A DNA stretch of 64,000 nucleotides from a virus (IMGVR_UViG_3300027260_000002); one strand, 5' to 3'. Positions 205-60,900 are shown, numbered from the stretch's first letter. Numbers and translations: made by a program. The notes: generated by a model from the sequence alone, not told the origin.

Positions 205-217
205 TATAAATAGTCCT

Positions 218-842: not shown

Positions 843-1283
843 ATGAAAAAGAGTCTGCTCCTGCTAGCTCTGATACTAAGCAGCCCAGCAAAAGCTGATC
901 CACTCGTACAGCAGTTTAAAAGTCCGTCCTTCAATGGATATGGATGGTCACAACATGTGCAGGCAATCGATGCGCAAGAACGTTCTCGTGAACAAGCAAT
1001 CAAAGATGCAGAAGCAGCAAAAGCCGCTCTTGCAAAAGCTGAAGCTTCGAACACTCCGCTTGCAAAGTTTATGGCTCTGTTTACCTCTCAGGTATATGCT
1101 CAGCTAGCCACACAGCTTTCAAACAATCTCTTTGCCGAAGGTTCTGCTCAGCAAGGCATGTTCAATCTCGATGGTAACACAATTAGCTATGTAAAAACTG
1201 GCACATCTGTGACGTTGACAGTTGTCGACAAATTTGGTAACACGACAGTCGTGACTGTTCCTATCGCAACGTTTGCGTTTTAA
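843..1283 (+). CDS. csgF: curli assembly component CsgF-like secreted protein
   Basis: ATG at 843 preceded by GAGGG. Signal peptide MKKSLLLLALILSSPAKA. Mature N-terminus DPLVQQFKSPSFNGYGW resembles E. coli CsgF FQFRNPNFGG. Lies immediately upstream of a strong CsgG homolog, matching the csgEFG gene order. Confidence 0.55.
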   Translation: MKKSLLLLALILSSPAKADPLVQQFKSPSFNGYGWSQHVQAIDAQERSREQAIKDAEAAKAALAKAEASNTPLAKFMALFTSQVYAQLATQLSNNLFAEGSAQQGMFNLDGNTISYVKTGTSVTLTVVDKFGNTTVVTVPIATFAF

Positions 1284-1292
1284 GGAGAAGTC

Positions 1293-2117
1293 ATGAAAAA
1301 GCTAATTTTACTTCCACTGCTTCTTGTCACAACTGCCTGCGCAGGCGGAGTGCATCCTCATCTCAATCAGTCGTATCTGATGAGAGAAGATGCCGAGGTA
1401 GAAAGATTTGCAAATCCTAAGTTGTTCAGAACTCTACCAGAACTTGACGGTCAGGTAATTCCGATTGCCATCTACTCGTTCACTGATAGAACAGGACAAC
1501 GCAAACCTTCTGCTACTCAAGCCAGCTTTTCGACAGCCGTGACTCAAGGTGCAGATGCTTATGTTATCAAAACATTGGCAGATGTCGGAGATGGCAAATG
1601 GTTTAAACCAGTCGAGCGTGTAGGCATCGATTCTTTAATTAAAGAACGTCAGCTCGTAAGACAGATGAGAGAGCAACAACTCGGAGAAGGTGCTGAGCCA
1701 CTTCCTCCTTTGATGGTTGCGGGTATCATTCTTGAAGGTGGTATTATTGACTATAGTTCAAATACCAAAACTGGTGGTAACGGTGCACGATTCCTTGGAA
1801 TCGGCCCTTATCAACAGTATGCAGAAGATCAAGTTACTATTAGTATGCGACTCGTATCAGTACAGACAGGAGAAGTCCTGACCTCTGTCACTGTTGAGAA
1901 GAATCTGCTCTCTACGTCCGAGGGAGTGACAGCATTTAAGTTTTTTGACATGGCAACAAAAGCTTTTGAATTCGATGGACAACAAACATCGAATGAAGCA
2001 GGTAGTTATGCGATCCGTTCAGCCATAGAAACGGCCGTTGTGGAATTGATCAAGGACGGTGAACGTAAAGGTCTATGGAGATTTAAGCAAAAGGAAACAA
2101 CAAATGAAGGTAATTAA
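1293..2117 (+). CDS. csgG: curli production/transport outer-membrane lipoprotein CsgG-like
   Basis: RBS AAGGAG. Signal peptide ending ...TTAC (possible lipobox Cys). Blocks IAIYSFTDRTGQRKP, GNGARFLGIG and SAIETAVVELIKDGERKGLW match conserved E. coli CsgG blocks (VSVYNIQDETGQFKP, GVGARYFGIG, SAIETGVIFLINDGIDRGLW). Confidence 0.85.
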   Translation: MKKLILLPLLLVTTACAGGVHPHLNQSYLMREDAEVERFANPKLFRTLPELDGQVIPIAIYSFTDRTGQRKPSATQASFSTAVTQGADAYVIKTLADVGDGKWFKPVERVGIDSLIKERQLVRQMREQQLGEGAEPLPPLMVAGIILEGGIIDYSSNTKTGGNGARFLGIGPYQQYAEDQVTISMRLVSVQTGEVLTSVTVEKNLLSTSEGVTAFKFFDMATKAFEFDGQQTSNEAGSYAIRSAIETAVVELIKDGERKGLWRFKQKETTNEGN

Positions 2118-2877
2118 ATCTTTATTCGTTGGAGCTGCTCTTCTTTATGGAACATCTGCGATTGCACAAACAGTGCTACCAACAGCCCCAACTCCACCAG
2201 CAATTGTAACTACGTCACCAAATGAAGTGACTGCAGCTGCAGTAGCTACAACAAACAAAGTATATATCGACCAAGAAGGTGGTAATGTAGATGTTAACAT
2301 TGTTCAAACTGGTACTGCTAATATCATTGGCGACAATGCTGATCCTATCTATTTACGAGGTGATAATCAAAGTGTCATCGCTGTTCAAACCGGTAACGGA
2401 AACGAACTCTACATGGGCGTGGTCTCCGCTACAGGAGCAACAGGAATCGCAGCAGTAACTGTTCGTCAGATCGGTAATCTCAACACTGCAGACATTCGTT
2501 GCGGCACGCTTCAATCTGATGCTATCTGTAACAAGTTTGATCTGAATGCCAGATTTACAGGCGATTCAAACTCGCTCGTATTCCATGGTTCAGGCGAAAA
2601 CATTCGTAACTCGATGGATATCACTGGTGACAACAATGCATTCAACATCGATGCACTCTCGCCTAACGCAACTCAAACCATTCTCGTGACTGGTGATTAC
2701 AATGACTTCGACGTGACACAAACAGGTCTCGGCGGAACATTCGGCCATTCTCTGTATGTGAACCTCACAGGTACACTGAACACCATTACAACCCAACAGT
2801 ACGGAGCTTCTGAAACCGTAATCAATATTAACTCGGCGGGTTCAAATGGTACGTTTAATATTAAAACTGGCCATTAA
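2104..2877 (+). CDS. secreted curlin-repeat protein (CsgA/CsgB-like amyloid subunit candidate)
   Basis: ATG 2104, signal peptide MKVIKSLFVGAALLYGTSAIAQ. Multiple Q-x-G-x-(G)-N-type repeats (IDQEGGNVDVNIVQTGTANIIGD, IAVQTGNGNELYMG, VTQTGLGGTFGH, TTQQYGASETVININ) reminiscent of curlin repeats. Confidence 0.55.
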   Translation: MKVIKSLFVGAALLYGTSAIAQTVLPTAPTPPAIVTTSPNEVTAAAVATTNKVYIDQEGGNVDVNIVQTGTANIIGDNADPIYLRGDNQSVIAVQTGNGNELYMGVVSATGATGIAAVTVRQIGNLNTADIRCGTLQSDAICNKFDLNARFTGDSNSLVFHGSGENIRNSMDITGDNNAFNIDALSPNATQTILVTGDYNDFDVTQTGLGGTFGHSLYVNLTGTLNTITTQQYGASETVININSAGSNGTFNIKTGH

Positions 2878-3982
2878 TGCACTCTTTCTGATATCGGTTC
2901 CAGCTTTTGCAGGCGTGGGATCGATATCAGAATTTCAGGGTGGAGGTTCTGTAAAGCGTGGTGCAAAAGTTGCACCTGCTGCTAAAGGCTCGAGTATCGA
3001 GAAGAACGATACTGTGTCGACCAATTCTCAAGGTAAATTTAAGATTCGATTCGTCGATGCCACCACTGTGAACATCACACAGAATTCACGGCTGGTCATC
3101 GACGATTTCGTATATGATGGAAACAATAAGAGCAAAGGCAAGCTCGGTTTGAAGCTAGCTTTAGGAACTGCAAGATATACTTCTGGAGCGATTGCTCATG
3201 GCAATGCTCGTGGTGTCGGTATACGTACACCGACTGCAACGATCGCCGTAAGAGGTACAGACTTTGTCATGTCTGTCGACGAAGCTGGCAGATCGACAGT
3301 CGTTCTTGTTCCTGAATGTTACAATGACAAAGATATCACAAAGATCAACTTCGAATGCCCATCAGGAGCTATCGACGTGATCACTGCTGCAGGTATCGTC
3401 ACTCTGACTCAGCCATTCCAAGCAACGATGGTCGAGAATTCTTATGCGCCTCCTGCTCCTCCTGTCGTCATCAATCCTTCAATGAAGGGTATGGACAACA
3501 ATATTCAGATCTCTCCCCTCGAAACCGATGATGGACAATCACTGATCACAGCAGCTCGTGAAGCTTTGAAGAAGTTTGTCAATCCTGCAAAAGCGGCATC
3601 TGACGATAACCAAGATCCAAATACTGGCGGAGATGGTGTAGAAGAAGTAGCGGTGGCTACACTTCGTTTGCCTACACAGAATGAACTTCAAGAAATTTAT
3701 GCAGAGTATAATTCTGGAAAGAGGCCTACAGAAACCGTTTATACGAACGTATCGCCCACTTTTAAGAAGTTGGTGCAGGTAGGTTGGGTATACTCGAGAA
3801 TCTCTGAAGATAAGAATCAAGTTGTCGTGGTATGGTTACCAAAAGATACTGAAATCCAAATGATTTCATCTCATAATGGTGTCGTCGACGCATACAATTT
3901 TATGGATGATAAATGGACTACGACTGGCACAGGTAGACCGCAAGGAAATATCACCGTGATACAAGAATCGGGTGTAAGATGA
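2846..3982 (+). CDS. secreted protein with FecR-like beta-sandwich region
   Basis: N-terminal hydrophobic signal. Central segment IRFVDATTVNITQNSRLVIDD...IAVRGTDFVMSVDEAGRSTVVLVPEC matches the FecR-domain pattern (GT.F.V ... V.V.EG). Start is uncertain because it overlaps the previous gene by 32 nt. Confidence 0.4.
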   Translation: MVRLILKLAINALFLISVPAFAGVGSISEFQGGGSVKRGAKVAPAAKGSSIEKNDTVSTNSQGKFKIRFVDATTVNITQNSRLVIDDFVYDGNNKSKGKLGLKLALGTARYTSGAIAHGNARGVGIRTPTATIAVRGTDFVMSVDEAGRSTVVLVPECYNDKDITKINFECPSGAIDVITAAGIVTLTQPFQATMVENSYAPPAPPVVINPSMKGMDNNIQISPLETDDGQSLITAAREALKKFVNPAKAASDDNQDPNTGGDGVEEVAVATLRLPTQNELQEIYAEYNSGKRPTETVYTNVSPTFKKLVQVGWVYSRISEDKNQVVVVWLPKDTEIQMISSHNGVVDAYNFMDDKWTTTGTGRPQGNITVIQESGVR

Positions 3983-5439
3983 TGAGATGGATCTTAACAC
4001 TACTACTGTTAACGTTCAGCGTACAGTTAAATGCGCAGACGCCTTCGAACTATGGTTTCGAAGATGGAAATTATGCGGGTTGGACGGTGTCGAACGGATC
4101 TACTGCACTTCGTACTTCATGGAGCGACACTGGTAACGGTGTACAAGTGACAACTGGAGTACAGAACTATTGCCCAGGCGGTGGTAAGTGCTGGACGATT
4201 ACTCCGTATGGATCGTACATGTTATCGATTCAAGCAGGAGGAAACTCGCCCAATTTTAATGCTGCGATGACTACTCTTGGGCTCAGCGCTTCTAACATTA
4301 CATCTATTCGTAACACGATCTATTCGAACGGATCGATGTATCCTACGAACGCTTCTTCAGTCAGTCGAACAGTATTCTTGCAGGCAGGAATTACATATTC
4401 GTTTGGTTGGCAGTATCTGTCGACAGACTATGTTCCGTATAACGATGGTTCTCTCATCACCTTGACGGGTGGACCGGGAACACCGACTCTCAACGGTCAA
4501 ACACAAAACTATGCGCTGTTAGGCTTTACAAATCCTGGAACTGGCAACTATTCGACTAACTCTTATAGTGCTACTGGCTGGCAAGTTGCCGTGTTCACGG
4601 TTCCAGCAGATGGCAACTATATGCTTGGATTCTCTTCTTTCAACCTCGGTGACACAGCTCTTTCGCCTATCTTATTCATCGATCAGTTACAAGGAACAAC
4701 GTCACTGAATGGTGCTACGTTTGCTCCTGTTGCACCGAACCAAGGATCTTCGGCACCGACTGCACCACCTCCACCTCCTGCAGAACCAGTATATCCAACT
4801 ACATCGATTACTACCAATCAAACTATCAAGCTCGGTCAAACGAATGCCATTACGAGCAACTCGATTTACATTCAAAATATCGGTGATAACAATACCGTCA
4901 ACATCGAGCAGTTCTCGAGGTTTAACGCTATCAGAGGTGTAAATGGTTCTCAATCGATGTTGATCAATGGTAGCAACAACTCCATTACTATCAATCAAGG
5001 TACTGCGGTCGCAATTCTTGGTAATAATCTTGCCGAAGTCTCTGTGACAGGAAACAATAACACCGTATCTCTGACTCAGCAATATAATGGCAAGTATGCA
5101 GAGCTAATAATGAATGGAACAGGAAATCAACTGACTGCCCAACAGAAAGATACTGGTGGAAAGTCTGCGTTCTTCAACATTTTAGGTAACTCGAATGTGA
5201 TTACGACTCTTCAACAAGGAACTGGTAATCATTTCCTCGATGTCAGTGCTCCGTATGGTGGGTTGAATGCAAATATCACTCAATCTGGTTCTGCACAGAA
5301 GCTGTTTAAATTGGTAATAAATAATCCTGGAATTGGAGTCACTGTATCGCAAACTGCCGCGAGCGTTACTGACTCAGTCTTAATGTCAATCACCTGCGCC
5401 ACTGGGCCATGTACTGGATACAGCTACGTAAAGAATTAA
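3979..5439 (+). CDS. secreted protein with N-terminal globular domain and C-terminal curlin-like repeats
   Basis: Signal peptide MMRWILTLLLLTFSVQLNAQ, Pro-rich linker APTAPPPPPAEP, then repeats SLTQQYNGKYAELIMNGTGNQLTAQQKDTGGKSAFFNILGNSNVITTLQQGTGNHFLDV (Q-x-G-x-G-N-x-A/L-x3-Q curlin motif). Confidence 0.55.
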   Translation: MMRWILTLLLLTFSVQLNAQTPSNYGFEDGNYAGWTVSNGSTALRTSWSDTGNGVQVTTGVQNYCPGGGKCWTITPYGSYMLSIQAGGNSPNFNAAMTTLGLSASNITSIRNTIYSNGSMYPTNASSVSRTVFLQAGITYSFGWQYLSTDYVPYNDGSLITLTGGPGTPTLNGQTQNYALLGFTNPGTGNYSTNSYSATGWQVAVFTVPADGNYMLGFSSFNLGDTALSPILFIDQLQGTTSLNGATFAPVAPNQGSSAPTAPPPPPAEPVYPTTSITTNQTIKLGQTNAITSNSIYIQNIGDNNTVNIEQFSRFNAIRGVNGSQSMLINGSNNSITINQGTAVAILGNNLAEVSVTGNNNTVSLTQQYNGKYAELIMNGTGNQLTAQQKDTGGKSAFFNILGNSNVITTLQQGTGNHFLDVSAPYGGLNANITQSGSAQKLFKLVINNPGIGVTVSQTAASVTDSVLMSITCATGPCTGYSYVKN

Positions 5440-5441
5440 TT

Positions 5442-6026
5442 ATGTTTATTTTTATACATGATAATGGCAATCTAAATGTTTTATCTATGACTAAGTGCGG
5501 TCATACGGCTATGTCATATTATTTTGGAATAGAACTACCAATGCAAAAAACATTTGCGCATTGGATAGAAGGAGAATCTCCGAAAGTAGTAGTATTAAGG
5601 CATCCAGTAGAACGTATGCATTCTGCTATTAATTTTCATGAAAAGCAATTTAATGAACGAATAGTAAAGTATAAAACCACCGGAGAATGCGACGACTTTT
5701 CTCTTATTGAAGACTTGATTAACTGGGATGATCGTCAACGAGAGTGGGAAATTGAAAGATTTATTTTTAATCAACACTGTCGTCCATATATGCATATTAT
5801 AAAAAATAGAGATTTTAGAATTATAAAATTTGAAGATCTATCTCAATATATTCCAAAGATATCACCCCGAGGCGCTGAAACCAATACTACTAATAGAAAT
5901 ATAGATCCTTTTCCAAAGAATAGATACTTTAAACGGGAAGATATGATAAAAGAGATTGAATTGTATGAGAGTCTTTTAGTAAATAGAGAAGTTATAACAC
6001 CCGAAGAATGGAAAGCGCTGACATGA
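5442..6026 (+). CDS. sulfotransferase-family protein
   Basis: ATG 5442 directly after the upstream stop. TKCGHTA (PAPS 5'-phosphosulfate-binding-like) and RHPVERMHSA (RxPxxR 3'-phosphate-binding-like). Markedly AT-rich relative to its neighbours. Confidence 0.45.
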   Translation: MFIFIHDNGNLNVLSMTKCGHTAMSYYFGIELPMQKTFAHWIEGESPKVVVLRHPVERMHSAINFHEKQFNERIVKYKTTGECDDFSLIEDLINWDDRQREWEIERFIFNQHCRPYMHIIKNRDFRIIKFEDLSQYIPKISPRGAETNTTNRNIDPFPKNRYFKREDMIKEIELYESLLVNREVITPEEWKALT

Positions 6027-8071
6027 TGAAAAAGATTCTACTGAGCCCGTGGTTGGCGCTCTTTACATTTGCAGTACTATTTACTTTTAAGTTACAAGAT
6101 CCATATCTAGTTGAAGCGACTCGTCTTAAATTTTATGACTACATCATGCTCGATAAAGCAAAACAATCTGAGCAGATTGTAGTCGTTAATTTAGGGGAGA
6201 AAGCAATTGAAAAATATGGCCAGTGGCCGTTCCCGCGTGAAGTCCACGCTGAAATTATTGGGAACATTTATGGCCGAGGGGCTGCTCTTGTTGGCAGCAC
6301 TGTACTTATGCCTGAGCCTGATCGGATGGGCACTGATCGAGTTCTTGTTGATACTCTAAGCAAGTATCCAGTTGTTCTTAGTCAGACTGTGTCGGCGGAT
6401 TGTGGTCGACCATCCAGTCGCGATGTTCGTCGGACAGGTGTGGCTGTTGTTGGGGATGGCCAGTCAACCGATTTTCTTCCGTCATATCCATGCGTCCTAT
6501 CGAATCTAGCATTGCTTCAGCAGCATGCTGCTGGTGTTGGAGTGACATCAACTCTTCCTGAACCTGACGGTGTTGTGCGACGAGTTCCGCTTCTCGCAAC
6601 CTCAGCGGGTGAATACTACCCTGCATTTGCTCTAGAAATGTTAAGAGTTGCTGCCGGAGATCCTTCGTATCAGGCAAAGATAAATGAGACTGGTGTGGAA
6701 GCATTACGAATTCCTTCTTTTGAAACTATTAAGACCGATGAATATGGTCGCGTGTTTATTAATCCAAACTATCGATTTGAGTCATACGAAATTGGCAAGG
6801 ATCCTTTGCCTGTCCTGAGTGGTAAAATCGTGATTCTCGGAGTAACTGCAGCTGGTGTAAGTAACCCTGTAGCGACTCCTTCAGGTGCGCAGTATCCCCA
6901 TCAGCTCCAGGCGAGTATTCTTGAGACTCTGATAAATGGTGATTCGGTTTCGATTCCGAATTGGACACAGCTTGTAGATCTTGCTGCTCTTCTTGTTTTG
7001 GCTCTGGCATTGATCATCATCTCTCGATTAAAATACTCTATCGTCTGGATAGGTTTAATTTTAGGCGGATATCTTTATCTGCCTATGTATTTATTCGCAA
7101 GCAAAGGAATCTTGTTAGACGTCACGTTTAACGTCATCGCAATTGCAATTATTTACATGCATATCTATACAGTGAAATTTATATCTGAATTCCTTCAGAA
7201 GCAACAAATCAAGAAACAGTTCGGCACATATCTGAGTCCAGATCTGGTAGCAAAATTGCAAAGACAACCAGATCTCTTGAAGTTAGGCGGAGAATCTCGC
7301 GAGCTTTCAATCATGTTCACAGACGTTCGAGGATTTACTACAATCTCTGAACACTATGGTGAAGATGTCCAAGGTTTGACTTCAATCATGAATCGTTATA
7401 TGACGGTCATGACAAGAGCGATCCTTGAAAACAATGGGACATTAGATAAGTATATTGGTGATGCACAGATGGCATTCTGGAATGCGCCGCTCGATAACAA
7501 ACAACATGCACGAGATGCAGTTCGAACAGCATTTCAAATGCTAAAAGACCTGGAGATATTTAATGAAGAAGTTGAAAGAGAAGGTATACCCGCTTTTGGC
7601 ATGGGTCTTGGTATTAACACTGCCACTGTGGTGGTTGGTAATATGGGCAGTAGCCAGCGTTTTGATTATACTTGTCTGGGTGATGGCGTTAATCTGGCTG
7701 CTCGTCTGGAAGGTCAATCCAAACCTTATGGCGTCAAACTCGTCGTCGGACCACAAACTGCCGAATTGGTTGGGGATGTATACCAAGTAGTTGAACTCGA
7801 CCTGATCGCCGTGAAAGGTAAGACAGAACCTGCTCGCATCTATACCATTTTTGATGTGGCAGATCCTGCTGGAGAATTGCTGCATAAAAAGTTCTTGGAC
7901 TTCTATCGTCAAGGTAAATGGGATGCAGCTATCAATCTGATAAAAGATCTGAAACGTTGCTGGGACGAAGAGCTGAATGCATACTACGATATGATGGAGA
8001 AACGCATTCAGAATCTAAAGTTTGAAGAACCCTGGGAATGGGACGGAGTTTATAGAGCTACAAGTAAGTGA
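6023..8071 (+). CDS. CHASE2-sensor class III adenylate/guanylate cyclase
   Basis: ATGA overlap at 6023. N-terminal signal/TM then a periplasmic CHASE2-like region. TM cluster (LVDLAALLVLALALIIISRL, IVWIGLILGGYLYLPMY...). C-terminal cyclase domain with LSIMFTDVRGFTTISE ... KYIGDAQMAFWNAP ... FDYTCLGDGVNLAARLEG. Confidence 0.8.
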   Translation: MMKKILLSPWLALFTFAVLFTFKLQDPYLVEATRLKFYDYIMLDKAKQSEQIVVVNLGEKAIEKYGQWPFPREVHAEIIGNIYGRGAALVGSTVLMPEPDRMGTDRVLVDTLSKYPVVLSQTVSADCGRPSSRDVRRTGVAVVGDGQSTDFLPSYPCVLSNLALLQQHAAGVGVTSTLPEPDGVVRRVPLLATSAGEYYPAFALEMLRVAAGDPSYQAKINETGVEALRIPSFETIKTDEYGRVFINPNYRFESYEIGKDPLPVLSGKIVILGVTAAGVSNPVATPSGAQYPHQLQASILETLINGDSVSIPNWTQLVDLAALLVLALALIIISRLKYSIVWIGLILGGYLYLPMYLFASKGILLDVTFNVIAIAIIYMHIYTVKFISEFLQKQQIKKQFGTYLSPDLVAKLQRQPDLLKLGGESRELSIMFTDVRGFTTISEHYGEDVQGLTSIMNRYMTVMTRAILENNGTLDKYIGDAQMAFWNAPLDNKQHARDAVRTAFQMLKDLEIFNEEVEREGIPAFGMGLGINTATVVVGNMGSSQRFDYTCLGDGVNLAARLEGQSKPYGVKLVVGPQTAELVGDVYQVVELDLIAVKGKTEPARIYTIFDVADPAGELLHKKFLDFYRQGKWDAAINLIKDLKRCWDEELNAYYDMMEKRIQNLKFEEPWEWDGVYRATSK

Positions 8072-8077
8072 GGTAAT

Positions 8078-8692
8078 ATGATTGATGATACGATGATGGC
8101 TTCTTATCGAGCTGAATTTGAGAAAAATGGTTTTGTTAAAATTAAAAACGTTCTGTCTCCTGAGATCATAGAGCTATATAAATCCTTTATCGATATCTCT
8201 CATCTCGATGATATGAGAAGGAGAGAAACGGGTCCATACTTAGGCGGAGACATTCAGTCTGTTGATGGCAACGTTCTCGATAATAGCATACTCTTATATT
8301 GCAAACATATCGTAGAAAAAATATGGGCAACCGATAATATGGTTCCTTCGTATGCCTATTCACGAGAATATTTTCGTGGAGCTGAACTCAAAAATCATCG
8401 AGATCGCGAAGCGTGCCAGTACTCCATCACTATCACGATGTGTAAGAGGGGAGAAGGAACGTCTGCGCTATTTTTTAGCGACTCAGATGATAAGAGCAAT
8501 CCGATACCGGTCGACCTTGATGAAGGTGATGCCATCATTTTCAATGGCGGATCAAACTATGGAGGCAAGTGGCACTGGAGAGATCCTCTCGAAATGGATT
8601 CATTAATCCAGCTATTCCTCCACTACGTCCATCCTGATGCATCACATCTTGCTGAAAGAGATTATCCAAGACCTTTTTATCGTTCACGCTGA
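8078..8692 (+). CDS. 2OG-Fe(II) oxygenase, phytanoyl-CoA dioxygenase (PhyH)-like
   Basis: N-terminus YRAEFEKNGFVKIKNVLSPEIIELYKSF is PhyH-like. HRD...H iron-binding candidates are present. Confidence 0.45.
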   Translation: MIDDTMMASYRAEFEKNGFVKIKNVLSPEIIELYKSFIDISHLDDMRRRETGPYLGGDIQSVDGNVLDNSILLYCKHIVEKIWATDNMVPSYAYSREYFRGAELKNHRDREACQYSITITMCKRGEGTSALFFSDSDDKSNPIPVDLDEGDAIIFNGGSNYGGKWHWRDPLEMDSLIQLFLHYVHPDASHLAERDYPRPFYRSR

Positions 8693-8741
8693 TTTTTAGC
8701 ATGTACATTTTATCAAAAGTTTGGTAAGGTGGACCTATAAT
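8693..8741 (+). promoter_or_regulatory. conserved early-promoter cassette (AATAA-CATGTACA-N17-TAAGGT-GGACC-TATAAT), PeSL-like
   Basis: ATGTACA at 8701-8707, 17-nt spacer, TAAGGT 8725-8730, TATAAT 8736-8741, then GAAGGA RBS. Near-identical copies at 18522, 18838, 56922 and 57354. Confidence 0.55.
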
Positions 8742-8757
8742 GATGAAGGACGAAAAC

Positions 8758-9225
8758 ATGAACATCACGATCACTGGTATGATTGGCAAGCGCAAAGAGA
8801 AAGCGCTCCTCAAGGAAGCCGCAGAATTCTTTGCAGCCCAACTCATGGATCCTCGCATGGTTCGCAACCTCACCCTCGACATCGAAGTTTACAACAACCT
8901 TGATGTTGAAGGCGAATGTGTCGATGAAGATGGTTTTCGCAATCCTCGTTGGTTCACCATCGGCCTGAAGAGCCAAGACATCAAAGACATGATCAAAACT
9001 CTCGGCCACGAAATGGTCCATGTTAAGCAGCATGCCAAGAACGAACTTCAGACTGGCCATGCAGTTGCTGCACGTGGCGGCCTCAAAATCTACAGCAAGT
9101 GGATGGGTGAAATCTGGAAAGCAAAACGCAAAGAAGATGATTACTTTGACTCTCCGTGGGAGATCGAAGCGTATGGCCGTGAAGTCGGTCTTTATGCAAA
9201 GTGGGTTCAATATAAAGGAAATTGA
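8758..9225 (+). CDS. HExxH zinc-metallopeptidase-like protein (SprT-like)
   Basis: ATG 8758 downstream of the cassette RBS. HEMVHVKQH...GH motif. Confidence 0.45.
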   Translation: MNITITGMIGKRKEKALLKEAAEFFAAQLMDPRMVRNLTLDIEVYNNLDVEGECVDEDGFRNPRWFTIGLKSQDIKDMIKTLGHEMVHVKQHAKNELQTGHAVAARGGLKIYSKWMGEIWKAKRKEDDYFDSPWEIEAYGREVGLYAKWVQYKGN

Positions 9226-11189: not shown

Positions 11190-11215
11190 GAAGGGGAGCT
11201 TTCGCTCCCCTTCAA
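11190..11215. terminator. bidirectional rho-independent terminator between convergent genes
   Basis: GGGGAGC-TTTC-GCTCCCC hairpin with T-runs on both strands. Confidence 0.6.
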
Positions 11216-11216
11216 T

Positions 11217-12401
11217 TTATCCCCAATTGGCGTATTGTTTTGTTTTCTTTAAACGATCGTCAAGACCGTGTGTACCGCCATTCACTCTCTTCGAGATTTG
11301 AGTGATCACCGCATCGGTTACACCTTTGTCTGCAATTGCAAGCAATCCATTCTTACGGAAGAACCATAATGCAGACTCAAAAGCCAACTCACCAACCACA
11401 AGATCAGGATTCGTCAAGACGTCAGGACGTTTTACGTCAGCGGCAAAAGCTGTATAGTTGTCTTTCCCGGTCAGTTGGATCGGGCCTCGACCACGCCACT
11501 TCCAACCATCTCCAGAGGCTTCTGATCCGTTCCCCATCCGATTAGCATACACTTTGTTAGCAATCTTTTCTGGCTTACGAGCATAACCTGCGGTCGAAGC
11601 GATCGTAGGAAAATACTTCTTGAAGATGCCGTTGAGTCCCTTATCTGAGTAGTTCAGGTTCTCGGAGAACACCTTAAACCCGCCTGACTCGTGCGCACAC
11701 TGACCGAAGAAGTGCGCTGCTTGATTATTTGTCAGCTTGAAGTAATCTCTTGCTGCCTTATATGTGCCAGGTCCCCATTTACCGTCGGCAGTAATGCCGC
11801 ATTTTGTTTGGAGAGCAGCTAATGGACCAAGACCTGATACCTTTGAAGGAGCAGCCGGAGACGACTGAGGAGGCGCTTGCTTTGGCGCTGTGGCAATTGA
11901 AGGAGCCCCAGCAGCCTTTGTCGTCGATGGATCAAAGTCAGCGACCGTTGTATAGACGGTTCCGCCTGCCTTCGACTTCGTAGCGATCATACGCATCTTA
12001 CGATTGCCACCACCCTTCTTAATCGAAGCGTGAACCCAGCCAGAATTCTTATCGCCCTTTGTATAGAACTCAAGAATTACTTGGTCAAATTCGAGATTGT
12101 CGCCGATCCAATCCGCAACAACTTTGTTGTCAATACCAGGAATTTCGAAGTCGATCGCTTGGCCATTGACGTGCTGTGATGTCTTCGAACCGCCGACTGC
12201 CTTGTTCACCAACGGTGCACGATAAGACGAGTTGATTTGAACTGGTTTGCCAAAGTGATTACGAACTGGTTCGAGAATCTTTTCGCAGCAGTAACGCATG
12301 TTCTCAATGTGTTCTGGAGTTGGAGTGTTACTAAGTCCGAGTCTTTTTGCAGTAGGAGAAACAATCATCTCTGCCAAAGAAAAATGTTCAGTTAATTTCA
12401 T
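11217..12401 (-). CDS. multidomain endolysin: Peptidase_M15-like N-domain, peptidoglycan-binding domain, GH19 lysozyme/chitinase-like C-domain
   Basis: N-terminal SSYRAP...SQH..G.A.DF (M15 D-Ala-D-Ala carboxypeptidase-like). Middle CGITADGKWGPGT (PG_binding_1-like). C-terminal GQCAHESGGF ... NRMGNG ... WRGRGPIQLTG (GH19 signature blocks). Confidence 0.7.
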   Translation of the reverse strand: MKLTEHFSLAEMIVSPTAKRLGLSNTPTPEHIENMRYCCEKILEPVRNHFGKPVQINSSYRAPLVNKAVGGSKTSQHVNGQAIDFEIPGIDNKVVADWIGDNLEFDQVILEFYTKGDKNSGWVHASIKKGGGNRKMRMIATKSKAGGTVYTTVADFDPSTTKAAGAPSIATAPKQAPPQSSPAAPSKVSGLGPLAALQTKCGITADGKWGPGTYKAARDYFKLTNNQAAHFFGQCAHESGGFKVFSENLNYSDKGLNGIFKKYFPTIASTAGYARKPEKIANKVYANRMGNGSEASGDGWKWRGRGPIQLTGKDNYTAFAADVKRPDVLTNPDLVVGELAFESALWFFRKNGLLAIADKGVTDAVITQISKRVNGGTHGLDDRLKKTKQYANWG

Positions 12402-20237: not shown

Positions 20238-21035
20238 ATGAAAAATGTTACTAAGGTTGCTGTTCTCGCTGGTCTGATGGCCACGACTGCTGCATGTACT
20301 CGTATCGAAACAGGTGAAGTTGGTGTTCGTCGTTCGTTCGACAAGACTATTGAAACCACTGAGTTGATGCCTGGTTCTGTTAATCAGACCATCTTCGGTG
20401 ATGTCATGACATTCCCAACGAAGGACGTTCAGGTTGATGTGTCTGACTTGACTCCATTGGCTTCGGACAACTCGACTGTTGCCGACTTCGATATGGCAGT
20501 GATCTACTCGATCAATCCAGGTTCTGTCGCAGAACTCTACATCGAGAAGAACCGTGGTTTTCACGCTGACACCGAAGAAGGTGATACTCTTCTGATGTAC
20601 AACTACATCCGTCAGCTTGGTCGTAATGCTGCCTATAAGGTTGCTCGTCGTTACGAGTCATTGAAGATGGCTGATAACCGTGCTGAGATGGAACAGTTGA
20701 TTCGTCAGGAAGTTGTAGCACAGCTCGCTTCTGAGAAGCTTGACGGTGCAATTTCAATCTCACAGGTTCTTGTTCGTCAGGTAAAGCCTGCTGCAAACAT
20801 CGTAGCCTCGGCTAATGCGCTTGTTCAAGCTCAGAATGCTGAGAAGCAGAAGCAAGTCGAAGTTCGTACTGCTAAGCTTGAAGCACAACGTATTGCTGCT
20901 CTGAATGCCAACGCTGGTGCAACGAAGTACATGGAAGCAACTGCTATCGTTACTATTGCCGAAGCTGTCAAGGACGGTAAGGTCAACACGATCGTTATCC
21001 CTTACGACTTCAAGGGTATCGTCAACGTAAAGTAA
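20238..21035 (+). CDS. SPFH/band-7 (stomatin/prohibitin-like) lipoprotein
   Basis: ATG 20238. Signal plus Cys (LMATTAAC). SPFH-like core IETGEVGVRRSF ... coiled-coil Ala/Gln-rich C-terminus. Confidence 0.55.
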   Translation: MKNVTKVAVLAGLMATTAACTRIETGEVGVRRSFDKTIETTELMPGSVNQTIFGDVMTFPTKDVQVDVSDLTPLASDNSTVADFDMAVIYSINPGSVAELYIEKNRGFHADTEEGDTLLMYNYIRQLGRNAAYKVARRYESLKMADNRAEMEQLIRQEVVAQLASEKLDGAISISQVLVRQVKPAANIVASANALVQAQNAEKQKQVEVRTAKLEAQRIAALNANAGATKYMEATAIVTIAEAVKDGKVNTIVIPYDFKGIVNVK

Positions 21036-21923: not shown

Positions 21924-22315
21924 TTGTTCAGAACGCAGTAAATTGTTTGTCATGTGGAGATCTCATCATCTCTAAACATCGTCATGACTTTGTAAATTGC
22001 ACTTGCGGTGCTGTATGGGTAGATGGCGGTCAGGACTACCTGCGTCGTGTAGGTGACTTTGAAAACGCCGTCGACTTGTCTTGGTCACTGCCAGACAAGT
22101 TATATTTTGATTGTGCTGATGCTGCTGGCCTTGCTATGGATAGCGGTCGTAATACTAAAGGCATCGCCAATGCAGTGATGCGTACTCTTCGTGAAGCTGG
22201 TCGAGTGATCGCCGAAGGTGAACAAAGAATTCTAGCTCATAATCCTCGTATGGATGAGATTATGGTCGAAGAAGCCGATGGCACCATCAATCGTTATAAG
22301 AAAGTTGTAGAATGA
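21920..22315 (+). CDS. hypothetical protein with N-terminal zinc-ribbon-like cysteines
   Basis: CLSCGD...CTCG. Confidence 0.4.
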   Translation: MIVQNAVNCLSCGDLIISKHRHDFVNCTCGAVWVDGGQDYLRRVGDFENAVDLSWSLPDKLYFDCADAAGLAMDSGRNTKGIANAVMRTLREAGRVIAEGEQRILAHNPRMDEIMVEEADGTINRYKKVVE

Positions 22316-23421
22316 AAGAAGCATGCATCGTCGGCTTTGGAATGATCGATGCGTTAGGTGATAATCCCATCGATTGTTGGGAGAATATGCTTAATGATCG
22401 AGACTTCCATAAACCTATCGATCCTCATGTTCATGAAGGCCACAATCTTAAAGTTAAGTACGGGTTTTATCCTGAAATTGATATCGATGAAGAATTACAA
22501 CCTCGAGCAGTAGCTTATGGTATGCATGCGGTTGAGCAAGCTTTACACATGGCAAATTTGCCGCATTCATCGAATGTAGGTGTCATCTTCTCGACTCTTT
22601 TAGGCGGCAACTCGACAAAAGCAAAGTTAGATGCCGAAGGTCGAAAGATGAAACCAAAACAGATCCTTCGCTCAACGATGGATTATCTCTGCAGTCAAAT
22701 CTCAATTAAGTATGGATATACTGGTATCAATACCATGGTGTATTCTGCTTGTGCTACAGGTTTGGTAAGCATCGAATATGCTATGCGAATGCTCGATGAG
22801 TATGACTATGTGATCGTAGGCGGTTCTGATGCTGGCGTAAATCACATGGATCTCTACTTCTTCTCGATTATCAAGGCGATCGGTTCGAAGTCGATGCCAT
22901 TCGATAAGAATCGCGACGGTTTTATTATGGGTGAAGGTGCAGGTTGCATCATCCTTCAGTCGAGAGAAAAGGCCGAAGCGATGGGTTCGAAGGTATATGC
23001 TCGCATCACTGGAGTTTCGAATGCTTCAGATGCACACGATCCGACTGCACCTTCTGGAGCCGGAGCTCGTCTTTGCTTGGAGAAGCTGGATCTCGAAGGA
23101 GTCGACTCAGTCAACTCGCATGGAACCAGCACTCCACTCGGAGATGTGGTAGAGTATGACGTGGTTCGCGAGTTTACTGATGCACCGATCTATTCCAATA
23201 AAGGAAAAATTGGACATACTTTCGCTGCAGCAGGTGTACTTGAAACAATTTACAGTGTACTGTCTATTCAGAACGGTGTGATTCCTCATACCGCTGGTTG
23301 TCAAGACACTGATATGGATGTGGTGATGGAGAACATCGAGACAGATGTCAAGAAAGTTCTTGTCAATTCATTTGGATTTGGTGGTAAGTGTTGTTCAATT
23401 ATTGTTGAAAAGGAAAAGTAA
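22312..23421 (+). CDS. beta-ketoacyl-ACP synthase (KAS I/II, FabB/FabF-like)
   Basis: Active-site blocks YSACATGL (Cys), HGTSTPLGD (His), GKIGHTFAAAG (His), and C-terminal NSFGFGG. Confidence 0.8.
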   Translation: MKEACIVGFGMIDALGDNPIDCWENMLNDRDFHKPIDPHVHEGHNLKVKYGFYPEIDIDEELQPRAVAYGMHAVEQALHMANLPHSSNVGVIFSTLLGGNSTKAKLDAEGRKMKPKQILRSTMDYLCSQISIKYGYTGINTMVYSACATGLVSIEYAMRMLDEYDYVIVGGSDAGVNHMDLYFFSIIKAIGSKSMPFDKNRDGFIMGEGAGCIILQSREKAEAMGSKVYARITGVSNASDAHDPTAPSGAGARLCLEKLDLEGVDSVNSHGTSTPLGDVVEYDVVREFTDAPIYSNKGKIGHTFAAAGVLETIYSVLSIQNGVIPHTAGCQDTDMDVVMENIETDVKKVLVNSFGFGGKCCSIIVEKEK

Positions 23422-60392: not shown

Positions 60393-60424
60393 GCATGTAC
60401 AATTAAAGCCCGTTGGGGTATAAA
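60387..60424 (+). promoter_or_regulatory. CATGTACA-N17-TATAAA(TAG) promoter upstream of the tmRNA gene
   Basis: ATGTACA 60395-60401, TATAAATA 60419-60426. Confidence 0.45.
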
Positions 60425-60430
60425 TAGAAT

Positions 60431-60495
60431 ATCAGTTGTTGACAATCAACAATAAAGGCGGAAAGACCGGGGTTCGACTCCCCGCACCTCCACCA
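60431..60495 (+). ncRNA. ssrA: tmRNA acceptor piece (3' tRNA-like half) of a circularly permuted two-piece tmRNA; 5' boundary approximate
   Basis: T-arm CGGGG-TTCGACT-CCCCG at 60468-60484, acceptor 3' strand CACCTCC 60485-60491, discriminator A 60492, encoded CCA 60493-60495. The complementary 5' strand lies downstream, not upstream, so the gene is permuted. Confidence 0.75.
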
Positions 60496-60577
60496 TGGAC
60501 ACACAGTCTTTCAACCACATTGCACAGGATGTAATGTCACGACAGATTGACTGAGTTGCGCAACGTGTGTCCATGAT
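60496..60577 (+). other. intervening segment of the permuted tmRNA precursor, closed by a 10-bp inverted repeat
   Basis: ATGGACACAC (60495-60504) pairs perfectly with GTGTGTCCAT (60565-60574). This juxtaposes the CCA end and the GGGGGTG 5' end, as in alphaproteobacterial ssrA precursors. Confidence 0.6.
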
Positions 60578-60900
60578 GGGGGTGACTATGGAATTCGATT
60601 TTCGTGTAATAGGGCGGTTTGAGACTGATTGCTTGGCAAAGTGCCACTAAACATAAATGCTAACGATAACGATAGCTTTGCAGATATCCGCCTAGCGGCA
60701 TGATCTACACGGGTATGGCTCCACCTTGGAACAGAACGGGCCACTTACTACCAGTTGAATGACTGGTGCTACGAGTCGCCAGAAAAACTGCTGGCGGTAG
60801 TATAAATAAAATATCACGACGGAGGTTAGAATCCTCCATTGACTCTTGCAAAACTTCAAGTCTTAGATGGCTAGAAAGCGGCATCATTCGGATGCCACCG
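60578..60900 (+). ncRNA. ssrA: tmRNA coding piece (5' acceptor strand, D-loop analog, PK1, tag ORF, downstream pseudoknot region); 3' boundary uncertain
   Basis: GGGGGTG 60578-60584 pairs with CACCTCC giving G3:U70 (the AlaRS identity pair). ACUAUGGAAUUCGAU is a D-loop analog like E. coli AUUCUGGAUUCGAC. Tag ORF GCT AAC GAT AAC GAT AGC TTT GCA GAT ATC CGC CTA GCG GCA TGA at 60659-60703 = ANDNDSFADIRLAA*, preceded by an A-rich tract. Confidence 0.75.

Follow-up and report, generated by a model that had tools for sequence, protein, structure and literature searches.

Why a phage should carry a membrane-bound nucleotide cyclase at the end of a set of curli secretion genes is the question raised by IMGVR_UViG_3300027260_000002, a viral DNA of 64,000 nucleotides that was analyzed over its whole length (hereafter, the window). 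The cyclase, encoded on the plus strand, joins a CHASE2 sensor to a class III cyclase domain with intact catalytic residues; it closes a string of genes for CsgF, CsgG, curlin-like and FecR-domain proteins whose order is invariant among related phage loci, and CHASE2 cyclases paired with FecR-domain proteins recur in bacterial genomes. Taken together, these observations are in our view best explained by outside-in signaling of the module across the cell envelope, a reading to which we would assign a probability of roughly 0.55.

The phage is known only from JGI metagenome assemblies and represents an uncultured, abundant lineage; the window has a GC content of ~43%, and a nucleotide search against deposited phages gave no match. 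Its T4-like replication region encodes a family B DNA polymerase, UvsX, a gp41-like helicase, gp32, gp59, gp33 and RNase H, together with ribonucleotide reductase, ThyX and PhoH, and the presence of these T4-type genes in the same window bears out the phage origin that an earlier reading of the locus (the initial annotation) had assigned to the cyclase. Protein-database searches were filled by close viral relatives and returned no distant homologs, and JGI calls the identical protein "adenylate cyclase." By tblastn, relatives are found in the cultured Methylophilales phage Melnitz (41% identity over 96% of the query) and Pelagibacter phage HTVC008M (39% over 85%), where both counterparts are annotated as adenylate/guanylate cyclase.

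Three papers speak of a mystery surrounding the curli secretion genes of phages (PMC7029224, PMC9004378, PMC9599517). Zaragoza-Solas et al. 2020 (PMC7029224) and Buchholz et al. 2022 (PMC9004378) treat the phage "curli operon" as a puzzle and make no mention of the cyclase, while Wittmers et al. 2022 (PMC9599517) describe, in podo- and myovirus pelagiphages, a module with the order (HK)-CsgF-CsgG-CsgA/B-FecR-(CsgA/B)-adenylate cyclase, where HK denotes a histidine kinase. The latter study assigns CsgG, CsgF, FecR and the adenylate cyclase (AC) an alphaproteobacterial affinity, detects curli proteins, along with the FecR that accompanies them, at each of the 65 GOV2.0 ocean virome stations analyzed, gives evidence for expression of the viral module in metatranscriptomes, and reads FecR as an iron-dependent regulator, with CHASE2 and the catalytic residues left unmentioned (PMC9599517). 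Because the phage cyclase was thus already described as part of the curli module, its presence there is not new, and a phage CHASE2 cyclase beside curli genes repeats both database annotation dating back to 2013 and the 2022 paper; what the present analysis adds is the cellular pairing of FecR with CHASE2 next to an export device, and a phage FecR protein that lacks the defining features of the Fec type.

The cyclase and its catalytic center

The open reading frame (ORF) extends unbroken from 6008 to 8071 on the plus strand. Its first ATG, at 6008, gives 687 amino acids, whereas an alternative ATG in the same frame, five codons on at 6023, where it overlaps the stop of the ORF before it (ATGA), gives 682; the initial annotation had joined the 6023 start to the length of 687 residues, which fits the 6008 start. 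Residues are numbered here according to the 682-residue form. Searches for the two domains that the annotation had proposed returned both far above their Pfam gathering scores: CHASE2 (PF05226, E=8.5e-38) spans residues 18-331 and profile positions 6-256 of 257 at 130.8 bits against a cutoff of 26.3, indicative of a complete domain, and Guanylate_cyc (PF00211, E=2.7e-17) spans residues 426-602 at 63.4 bits against a cutoff of 21.9. Hydropathy peaks once before the sensor (residues 4-25) and three times after it (315-335, 340-360 and 363-385), so that the predicted topology, with one transmembrane (TM) helix, a periplasmic CHASE2 domain, three further TM helices and a cytoplasmic output domain, is the canonical CHASE2 layout. 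The initial claim, that the phage encodes a class III cyclase anchored in the membrane and equipped with a CHASE2 domain outside the cytoplasm, is thereby upheld, and the three cyclase motifs cited in its support, FTDVRGFTTISE, KYIGDAQMAFWNAP and GDGVNLAARLEG, are all found in the translation.

Among relatives the CHASE2 sensor is conserved at 59-82% identity per 40-residue block. The C-terminal tail, which has no Pfam match, is ~50% identical among relatives and is missing from the HTVC008M cyclase; bacterial homologs keep it, with matches extending to residue 682, and it is modeled as three helices with predicted local distance difference test (pLDDT) scores of 65-84 within an otherwise poor model. 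The protein falls into PHROG phrog_35576 (E=6.7e-237), to which PHROGs gives the function label "unknown," and an NCBIfam search returned no family for it.

To assess catalysis and substrate, the protein was aligned with 83 homologs of 39-98% identity, and its C-terminal 282 residues were searched against the PDB, where they matched 44 cyclase sequences. The best solved relatives are adenylate cyclases, namely Pseudomonas aeruginosa CyaB (3r5g, 1.1e-31) and Spirulina CyaC (1wc1, 8.8e-30; 1wc0, ~1e-29). The metal-binding Asp pair, D434 and D480, aligns to that of CyaC and is Asp in 83 of 83 sequences; the phosphate-binding R546 is Arg in 82 of 82 aligned, the transition-state N557 is Asn in 80 of 81, and R561 is Arg in 81 of 81. 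The roles of the matching CyaC residues are those that we take to be established in the class III literature. Of the two substrate positions, K476 is invariant, and T550, which aligns to the Thr of the CyaC "DFTAIG" motif, is shared by 80 sequences, with Asp found instead in Melnitz and Ser in HTVC008M. The relatives thus combine Lys with Thr, Asp or Ser and never show a Glu/Cys-type guanine pair, and Asp or Ser at position 550 together with Lys is predicted still to specify adenine.

The Lys476/Thr550 pair is a class IIIb adenine signature and as such indicates ATP use and an adenylate cyclase, so that the residue inspection that had been proposed for telling the two nucleotides apart points to ATP. 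The initial annotation had also named absence of the catalytic residues as the sign of a degenerate enzyme; all seven are present and near-invariant in the 83 homologs. Judged by these residues, the protein should be an active class IIIb adenylate cyclase and is apparently functional, and that it works as such in the membrane we regard as very probable. Bicarbonate activation is a class IIIb trait.

An invariant module of secretion, FecR and cyclase genes

The module reads CsgF, CsgG, curlin-like 1, FecR, curlin-like 2, cyclase, with the cyclase as its terminal gene; it is conserved across phage clades, and its members are tightly packed, their junctions being start/stop overlaps or spaced by a ribosome-binding site. 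We retrieved 80 phage loci, with relatives of the cyclase present on at least 587 IMG/VR contigs. Seeded from the cyclase, FecR lies upstream in 58 of the 58 loci with enough sequence and CsgF plus CsgG in 51 of 51; seeded from the CsgG of HTVC008M, FecR lies downstream in 41 of 41 and the cyclase in 18 of 18. The order is identical in the cultured phages Melnitz and HTVC008M. The linkage to curli genes noted in the initial annotation is consequently real and stronger than stated there (51/51 cyclase-seeded, 18/18 CsgG-seeded), and the cyclase is very probably an integral part of this type VIII secretion system (T8SS)/FecR module. Since the five upstream products (CsgF, CsgG, curlin-like 1, FecR and curlin-like 2) all carry signal-peptide-like N-termini, the whole module works in the cell envelope.

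Individual members differ in how firmly they are held. The counterparts of curlin-like 1 in Melnitz and HTVC008M are annotated as curlin-associated. Curlin-like 2 consists of an N-terminal nonrepeat domain of ~250 residues, a Pro-rich linker and C-terminal curlin-like repeats; it is the most variable member, absent from many loci, and its N-terminal part, which has no family match, could be a ligand-binding head on a fiber subunit. While the CsgF, CsgG and curlin-like neighbors named in the initial annotation are confirmed by Pfam, the sulfotransferase that it placed at 5409/5442..6026 is not: searched at E<=10, this ORF (orf205) matches neither a Pfam family nor a PDB sequence, and it falls into no PHROG; the identity was rejected as unsupported. 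Homologs of orf205 occur between curlin-like 2 and the cyclase in three loci only (L003, L010 and L037 in our numbering), and hence it is a sporadic insert rather than a conserved part of the module.

The FecR-domain gene, absent from the initial account of the locus, encodes a protein of 378 residues with its FecR domain at residues 55-155, followed by ~220 residues without a recognized fold. We considered and rejected a Fec-type iron regulator of the FecA-FecR-FecI kind: the phage protein has a signal peptide in place of the cytoplasmic anti-sigma part, and among the 97 ORFs of the window there are no sigma-70 r2/r4 or TonB-receptor domains, and thus no extracytoplasmic function (ECF) sigma factor or TonB-dependent receptor to act as the FecI and FecA partners, for which reasons it falls outside the Fec-type definition.

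The same pairing is found in cells. The bacterial comparison covered the 80 best relatives, matched over their full length at 31-38% identity and mostly from Alphaproteobacteria, and used profiles built from the phage proteins. A FecR-domain ORF lies within 10 kb of the cyclase in 26 of these 80 loci, a raw adjacency count, and in 9 of the 26 it stands directly upstream on the same strand across a gap of at most 100 bp, which is the phage arrangement. CsgG or CsgF near the cyclase was found in none of the 80. The bacterial FecR partners are secreted multidomain proteins in which FecR is combined with cadherin-like and laminin-G domains, RTX repeats or TPR. The stretch separating FecR from the cyclase holds, in several loci, a TPR/Slam-like beta-barrel (L116, L123), a TPR/DUF2860 barrel (L142), TPR repeats only (L152), an ABC transporter of a type I secretion system (T1SS) with HlyD (L090, L102), or an ABC transporter as the only gene scanned (L155). 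The bacterial pairs thus travel either with a TPR/Slam-like (SlipAM/DUF2860) protein or with a T1SS and RTX- or cadherin-bearing FecR proteins.

In Sinorhizobium meliloti the homolog is 31% identical over residues 25-609, with an annotated FecR-domain gene 256 bp away, and the CHASE2 cyclases CyaD1, CyaD2 and CyaK of this species raise 3',5'-cyclic AMP (cAMP) upon an external proteinaceous signal received via the outer-membrane protein NsrA (PMC7529298, PMC13001267). A cluster of CHASE2-AC, FecR, TPR and phosphodiesterase genes is known from Campylobacterota (PMC9239204), and FecR forms an operon with a CHASE2 histidine kinase in Burkholderia (PMC5192318); a paper on the cargo of type XI secretion systems mentions neither FecR nor cyclases. 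FecR and a CHASE2 cyclase are, in short, a recurrent cellular signaling pair (S. meliloti, Bradyrhizobium, Campylobacterota), and in the phage CsgG/CsgF hold the position of the cellular outer-membrane export device, be it a Slam-like barrel or a T1SS.

Proposed outside-in signaling and competing explanations

In light of these results, we propose that the cyclase would act as an inner-membrane receptor in which TM1 leads into the periplasmic CHASE2 domain and three TM helices lead back to a cytoplasmic class IIIb catalytic domain, which, by analogy with CyaC and CyaB, would homodimerize and convert ATP to 3',5'-cAMP. The CsgG/CsgF pore would bring the curlin-like proteins out of the cell or onto its surface, the secreted FecR-domain protein would couple events at the outer membrane or in the periplasm to CHASE2, and the resulting change in cAMP within the infected cell would act on a host cAMP receptor, the module being probably transcribed late from an upstream T4-type late promoter. 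Outside-in signaling as a whole carries the probability given above; the more specific notion that input to the cyclase depends on FecR and the T8SS is tentative, and we hold it with less than even confidence.

Several observations weigh against this proposal. No cyclic-nucleotide-binding, Crp, GAF or phosphodiesterase domain is present in the 97 ORFs of the window. The S. meliloti FecR-domain protein SMc02177 is dispensable for signal perception (PMC5498481). The bacterial FecR adjacency is, as said, a raw count, and the late timing would follow from a sequence motif only. Structure models are poor, with mean pLDDT values of 42.7 for the cyclase and 35.1 for the FecR protein, and were built from shallow alignments of 72-97% identity. 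Finally, coevolution does not single out FecR and CHASE2. In a mirror-tree test comparing 49 unique loci all against all, FecR and CsgG sequence types are concordant one to one (r=0.95), and the correlation of FecR is r=0.52 with the cyclase's sensor half and r=0.25 with its catalytic half; the partial correlation is 0.46 for FecR and sensor given the catalytic domain and 0.03 for FecR and catalytic domain, and the FecR-sensor correlation is gone once CsgG is controlled for (-0.12), such that gene linkage alone can explain the signal. One CHASE2 type, moreover, occurs with two FecR types (22 and 16 loci).

The test was accordingly set aside as positive evidence for FecR-CHASE2 contact, its signal not being separable from linkage, and the coevolution data would fit a tighter attachment of FecR to CsgG. 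The CsgF-CsgG-curlin-FecR block moves as a cassette relative to the cyclase: in loci L015, L021, L033, L035 and L041 the flanks are ~90% identical to the window and the block 26-50%. The cyclase is itself mosaic in L068-L082, where identity to the window amounts to 80-88% in the catalytic domain, ~43% in CHASE2 and 25-30% in the TM region, a pattern that would fit either an exchange of the sensor half or its much faster evolution.

The partly independent recombination of cyclase and CsgF-FecR cassette would also suit the best-placed competing explanation, according to which the intact enzyme would flood the cell with cAMP constitutively and take over the host via the Crp regulon and its carbon and energy metabolism, its proximity to curli genes being an accident of coacquisition; a rewiring of host CRP-cAMP signaling, as suggested in the initial annotation, is speculative. 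We nonetheless consider this unlikely: a constitutive enzyme would have no use for a CHASE2 domain and four TM helices, all of which are complete and conserved here, synteny with the FecR and T8SS genes is invariant in both sampling directions, and a Crp-type receptor in the host is only presumed. It is by deletion of CHASE2 that S. meliloti CyaD1 becomes constitutive (PMC5498481).

Wittmers et al. (PMC9599517) propose that AC, HK and FecR are regulatory for the T8SS, with cAMP and an iron-responsive FecR controlling the viral T8SS/curli genes, and cite the influence of cAMP-CRP on csgD in Escherichia coli. The cyclase, however, sits in the same coupled gene string as its would-be targets; searches of the window turned up no CsgD, Crp, ECF sigma or DNA-binding regulator; and FecR has a signal peptide but neither an anti-sigma domain nor a FecI or FecA partner, all of which renders this regulatory role improbable. 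T4-type late transcription, furthermore, uses gp33/gp55 and not Crp, which counts against it as well. The related argument of the initial annotation, that curli expression is under second-messenger control, derives from the enterobacterial biology of CsgD and cyclic di-GMP; while the gene linkage behind it stands, no CsgD/Crp-like regulator was found in the window.

We attach very little weight to the possibility that the cyclic nucleotide jams or preempts defense signaling, or that ATP is depleted at a chosen moment. Nucleotide signaling in phage-host conflict is a general precedent and the sole point in favor, whereas the architecture is that of an envelope sensor rather than of a soluble counterdefense enzyme, the constant partners are envelope proteins, and no defense-related domains were noted nearby. 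The chances are equally slim for a guanylate or dual-specificity cyclase producing cGMP: among the top PDB matches is 2w01, deposited as an adenylate cyclase, which we take to be Synechocystis Cya2, since characterized as a guanylate cyclase. The S. meliloti relatives are likewise called AC/GCs (adenylate/guanylate cyclases), with a receptor, Clr, that accepts either nucleotide (PMC13001267, PMC10127613). The CyaC-aligned Lys476/Thr550 signature and the range of residue pairs in the relatives, as detailed above, speak against this specificity. A degenerate pseudo-cyclase serving only as scaffold or membrane anchor is scarcely credible, given that none of the seven catalytic positions is lost and that the 83 sequences, of 39-98% identity, conserve them.

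Outside-in signaling, if extended to its limit, would make the "curli operon" a complete virus-encoded pathway from surface to cAMP rather than primarily a fiber or biofilm device, which we find unlikely in so strong a form. Curlin-like or lectin-like surface proteins would then serve as the antenna, CsgG/CsgF as their pore in the outer membrane and FecR as the periplasmic transducer feeding the inner-membrane cyclase, a lytic phage would read the host exterior late in infection (neighboring cells, lysis debris, superinfecting phage), and cAMP would time or tune the end of infection. If true, such a pathway would parallel the cellular FecR/CHASE2 modules with their Slam-like or type I secretion components and would count among the rare instances in which a lytic phage carries its own environmental sensor. 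Recognition of the CHASE2/FecR sensor pair makes surface-to-cAMP signaling during infection a testable question.

Transcription, flanking genes and related systems

Table 1. Positions in the window of the cyclase, its domains and catalytic codons, and the genes and promoter motif upstream
Feature	Position	Strand	Basis and remarks
T4-type late-promoter motif TATAAATA	205..212	+	ends 5 nt before ATG 218; motif only
Small single-TM protein 1, 95 aa	218..505	+	phrog_18771; no Pfam family
Small single-TM protein 2, 87 aa	505..768	+	phrog_18771; no Pfam family
CsgF homolog, signal peptide	843..1283	+	Pfam CsgF 2.3e-17; N-terminus MKKSLLLLALILSSPAKA
CsgG homolog (outer-membrane T8SS channel), lipoprotein-like N-terminus	1293..2117	+	Pfam CsgG 2.3e-51; N-terminus MKKLILLPLLLVTTAC
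Curlin-like repeat protein 1, signal peptide	2104..2877	+	Curlin_rpt 6.4e-4, weak, just under gathering
FecR-domain protein, secreted, 378 aa	2846..3982	+	Pfam FecR 2.4e-12; signal-peptide-like N-terminus
Curlin-like protein 2, 486 aa, signal peptide	3979..5439	+	Curlin_rpt 0.01, 3 stretches
orf205/194, sporadic insert, no signal peptide	5442..6026 (or 5409 start)	+	homologs at that place in three loci
CHASE2-class IIIb adenylate cyclase (predicted)	6023..8071	+	682 aa; Pfam, PDB relatives, conservation, phrog_35576
TM helix 1 (aa 4-25)	6032..6097	+	hydropathy; helix 9-25 in low-confidence model
Periplasmic CHASE2 sensor (aa 18-331)	6074..7015	+	Pfam; between TM1 and TM2
TM helices 2-4 (aa 315-385)	6965..7177	+	hydropathy; low-confidence model helices 315-334, 339-361, 366-400
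Cytoplasmic class III cyclase homology domain (aa 426-602)	7298..7828	+	Pfam, PDB alignment, conservation
Catalytic codon D434	7322-7324	+	verified; CyaC alignment
Catalytic codon K476	7448-7450	+	verified; CyaC alignment
Catalytic codon D480	7460-7462	+	verified; CyaC alignment
Catalytic codon R546	7658-7660	+	verified; CyaC alignment
Catalytic codon T550	7670-7672	+	verified; CyaC alignment
Catalytic codon N557	7691-7693	+	verified; CyaC alignment
Catalytic codon R561	7703-7705	+	verified; CyaC alignment
C-terminal helical tail (aa 603-682)	7829..8068	+	family-specific; less conserved

Exact copies of the T4-type late-promoter motif TATAAATA number 7 in the window, where 2.2 would be expected, and 32 of 57 related loci have the motif placed identically ahead of the corresponding homolog. 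The 5-nt spacing from motif to ATG, kept in many relatives, suggests a leaderless or near-leaderless late mRNA. By its motif and position it is a probable promoter for the gene string that contains the module, and as it abuts the first gene, with no convincing plus-strand terminator before ~11190, we infer that late expression of the module is likely. A relaxed late-promoter-like motif, AATAAATA, lies at 5316-5323 (+) within the 3' end of curlin-like gene 2, with orf205 following after ~120 nt and the cyclase after ~700 nt, and could be an internal promoter. The two small single-TM proteins that open the string are paralogs that match each other, in a PHROG of unknown function; their genes stand 5' of CsgF in most loci and have moved 3', onto the opposite strand, in L058-L064 and L079-L080. 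They possibly correspond to the short proteins that Wittmers et al. term "histidine kinases," but no kinase domain is detectable in them.

Directly 3' of the cyclase, 8078-8692 (+) encodes a 2OG-Fe(II)/PhyH-like oxygenase (2OG, 2-oxoglutarate) by a weak Pfam match, its PHROGs family bearing the label "ferrochelatase," and 8740-9225 (+) a small HExxH metalloprotease-like protein; homologs of the latter are found 3' of the cyclase in ~17 related loci and those of the oxygenase in only a few. A two-domain cell-wall hydrolase (Peptidase_M15 and glycoside hydrolase 19-like) is encoded at 11217-12401 (-), and where this gene and the module string converge a strong GC-rich hairpin at 11190-11213 could be a bidirectional terminator. 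A permuted, two-piece transfer-messenger RNA (tmRNA) with the tag peptide ANDNDSFADIRLAA lies at 60400-60794 (+), as in phage Melnitz, with T4-type late-promoter motifs at 60419-60426 and 60801-60808; it was the only Rfam match in the window, with no riboswitch found and a glutamine riboswitch under threshold. Unusual auxiliary genes of the window specify an SPFH/Band 7 protein (20238-21035, +) and a FabF-like beta-ketoacyl synthase (22312-23421, +); others, elsewhere in it, specify ferritin-like, EF-hand, AdoMet decarboxylase, GDSL lipase, SIS/GHMP-kinase and glycosyltransferase proteins.

The closest known counterpart of the locus is the pelagiphage T8SS module (HTVC008M, AGE60353.1; Melnitz, QZI94833.1), which shares its gene order, its T4-like myovirus setting and the alphaproteobacterial affinity of its nearest cellular relatives. 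The cyclase presented here differs in its substrate-position residue, which is Thr and not the Asp of Melnitz or the Ser of HTVC008M, and, compared with HTVC008M, in keeping the 80-residue C-terminal tail; the locus differs in the extra ORF inserted before the cyclase and in belonging to a distinct lineage of higher GC content (~43%).

As to the enzyme itself, the catalytic domains of CyaC (1wc0/1wc1) and CyaB (3r5g) align over ~190 residues at E=1e-30 with matching metal, substrate and transition-state residues, whereas their N-terminal sensory parts differ from the CHASE2 cyclase described here; to our knowledge, neither CyaB nor CyaC has a CHASE2 domain.

S. meliloti CyaD1, CyaD2 and CyaK have the same architecture as the phage cyclase, a FecR-domain gene likewise adjoins the cyclase, and the logic by which an external cue passes via an outer-membrane component to CHASE2 and on to cAMP is the one proposed here. 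The outer-membrane partner in S. meliloti, however, is a large beta-barrel protein in place of CsgG/CsgF, and the system is cellular, with a known Crp-family receptor (Clr) and known target genes, whereas the present one is viral: no domain of an NsrA-/Slam-like beta-barrel/TPR partner, a cAMP phosphodiesterase or a Crp-family receptor was found in the window. The Campylobacterota and Bradyrhizobium clusters similarly unite a CHASE2 cyclase, a secreted FecR protein and an envelope export component. The export component of the bacterial clusters is a Slam-like TPR/beta-barrel or a T1SS and never CsgG/CsgF (80 loci), and the Campylobacterota cluster includes a cAMP phosphodiesterase, of which there is none among the 97 window ORFs. 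In the BiofilmReg operon of Burkholderia, a LysM/FecR periplasmic protein is found beside a CHASE2 sensor with the same 1+3 TM arrangement; its output is a histidine kinase that controls biofilm via a response regulator, where the phage sensor is instead joined to a cyclase.

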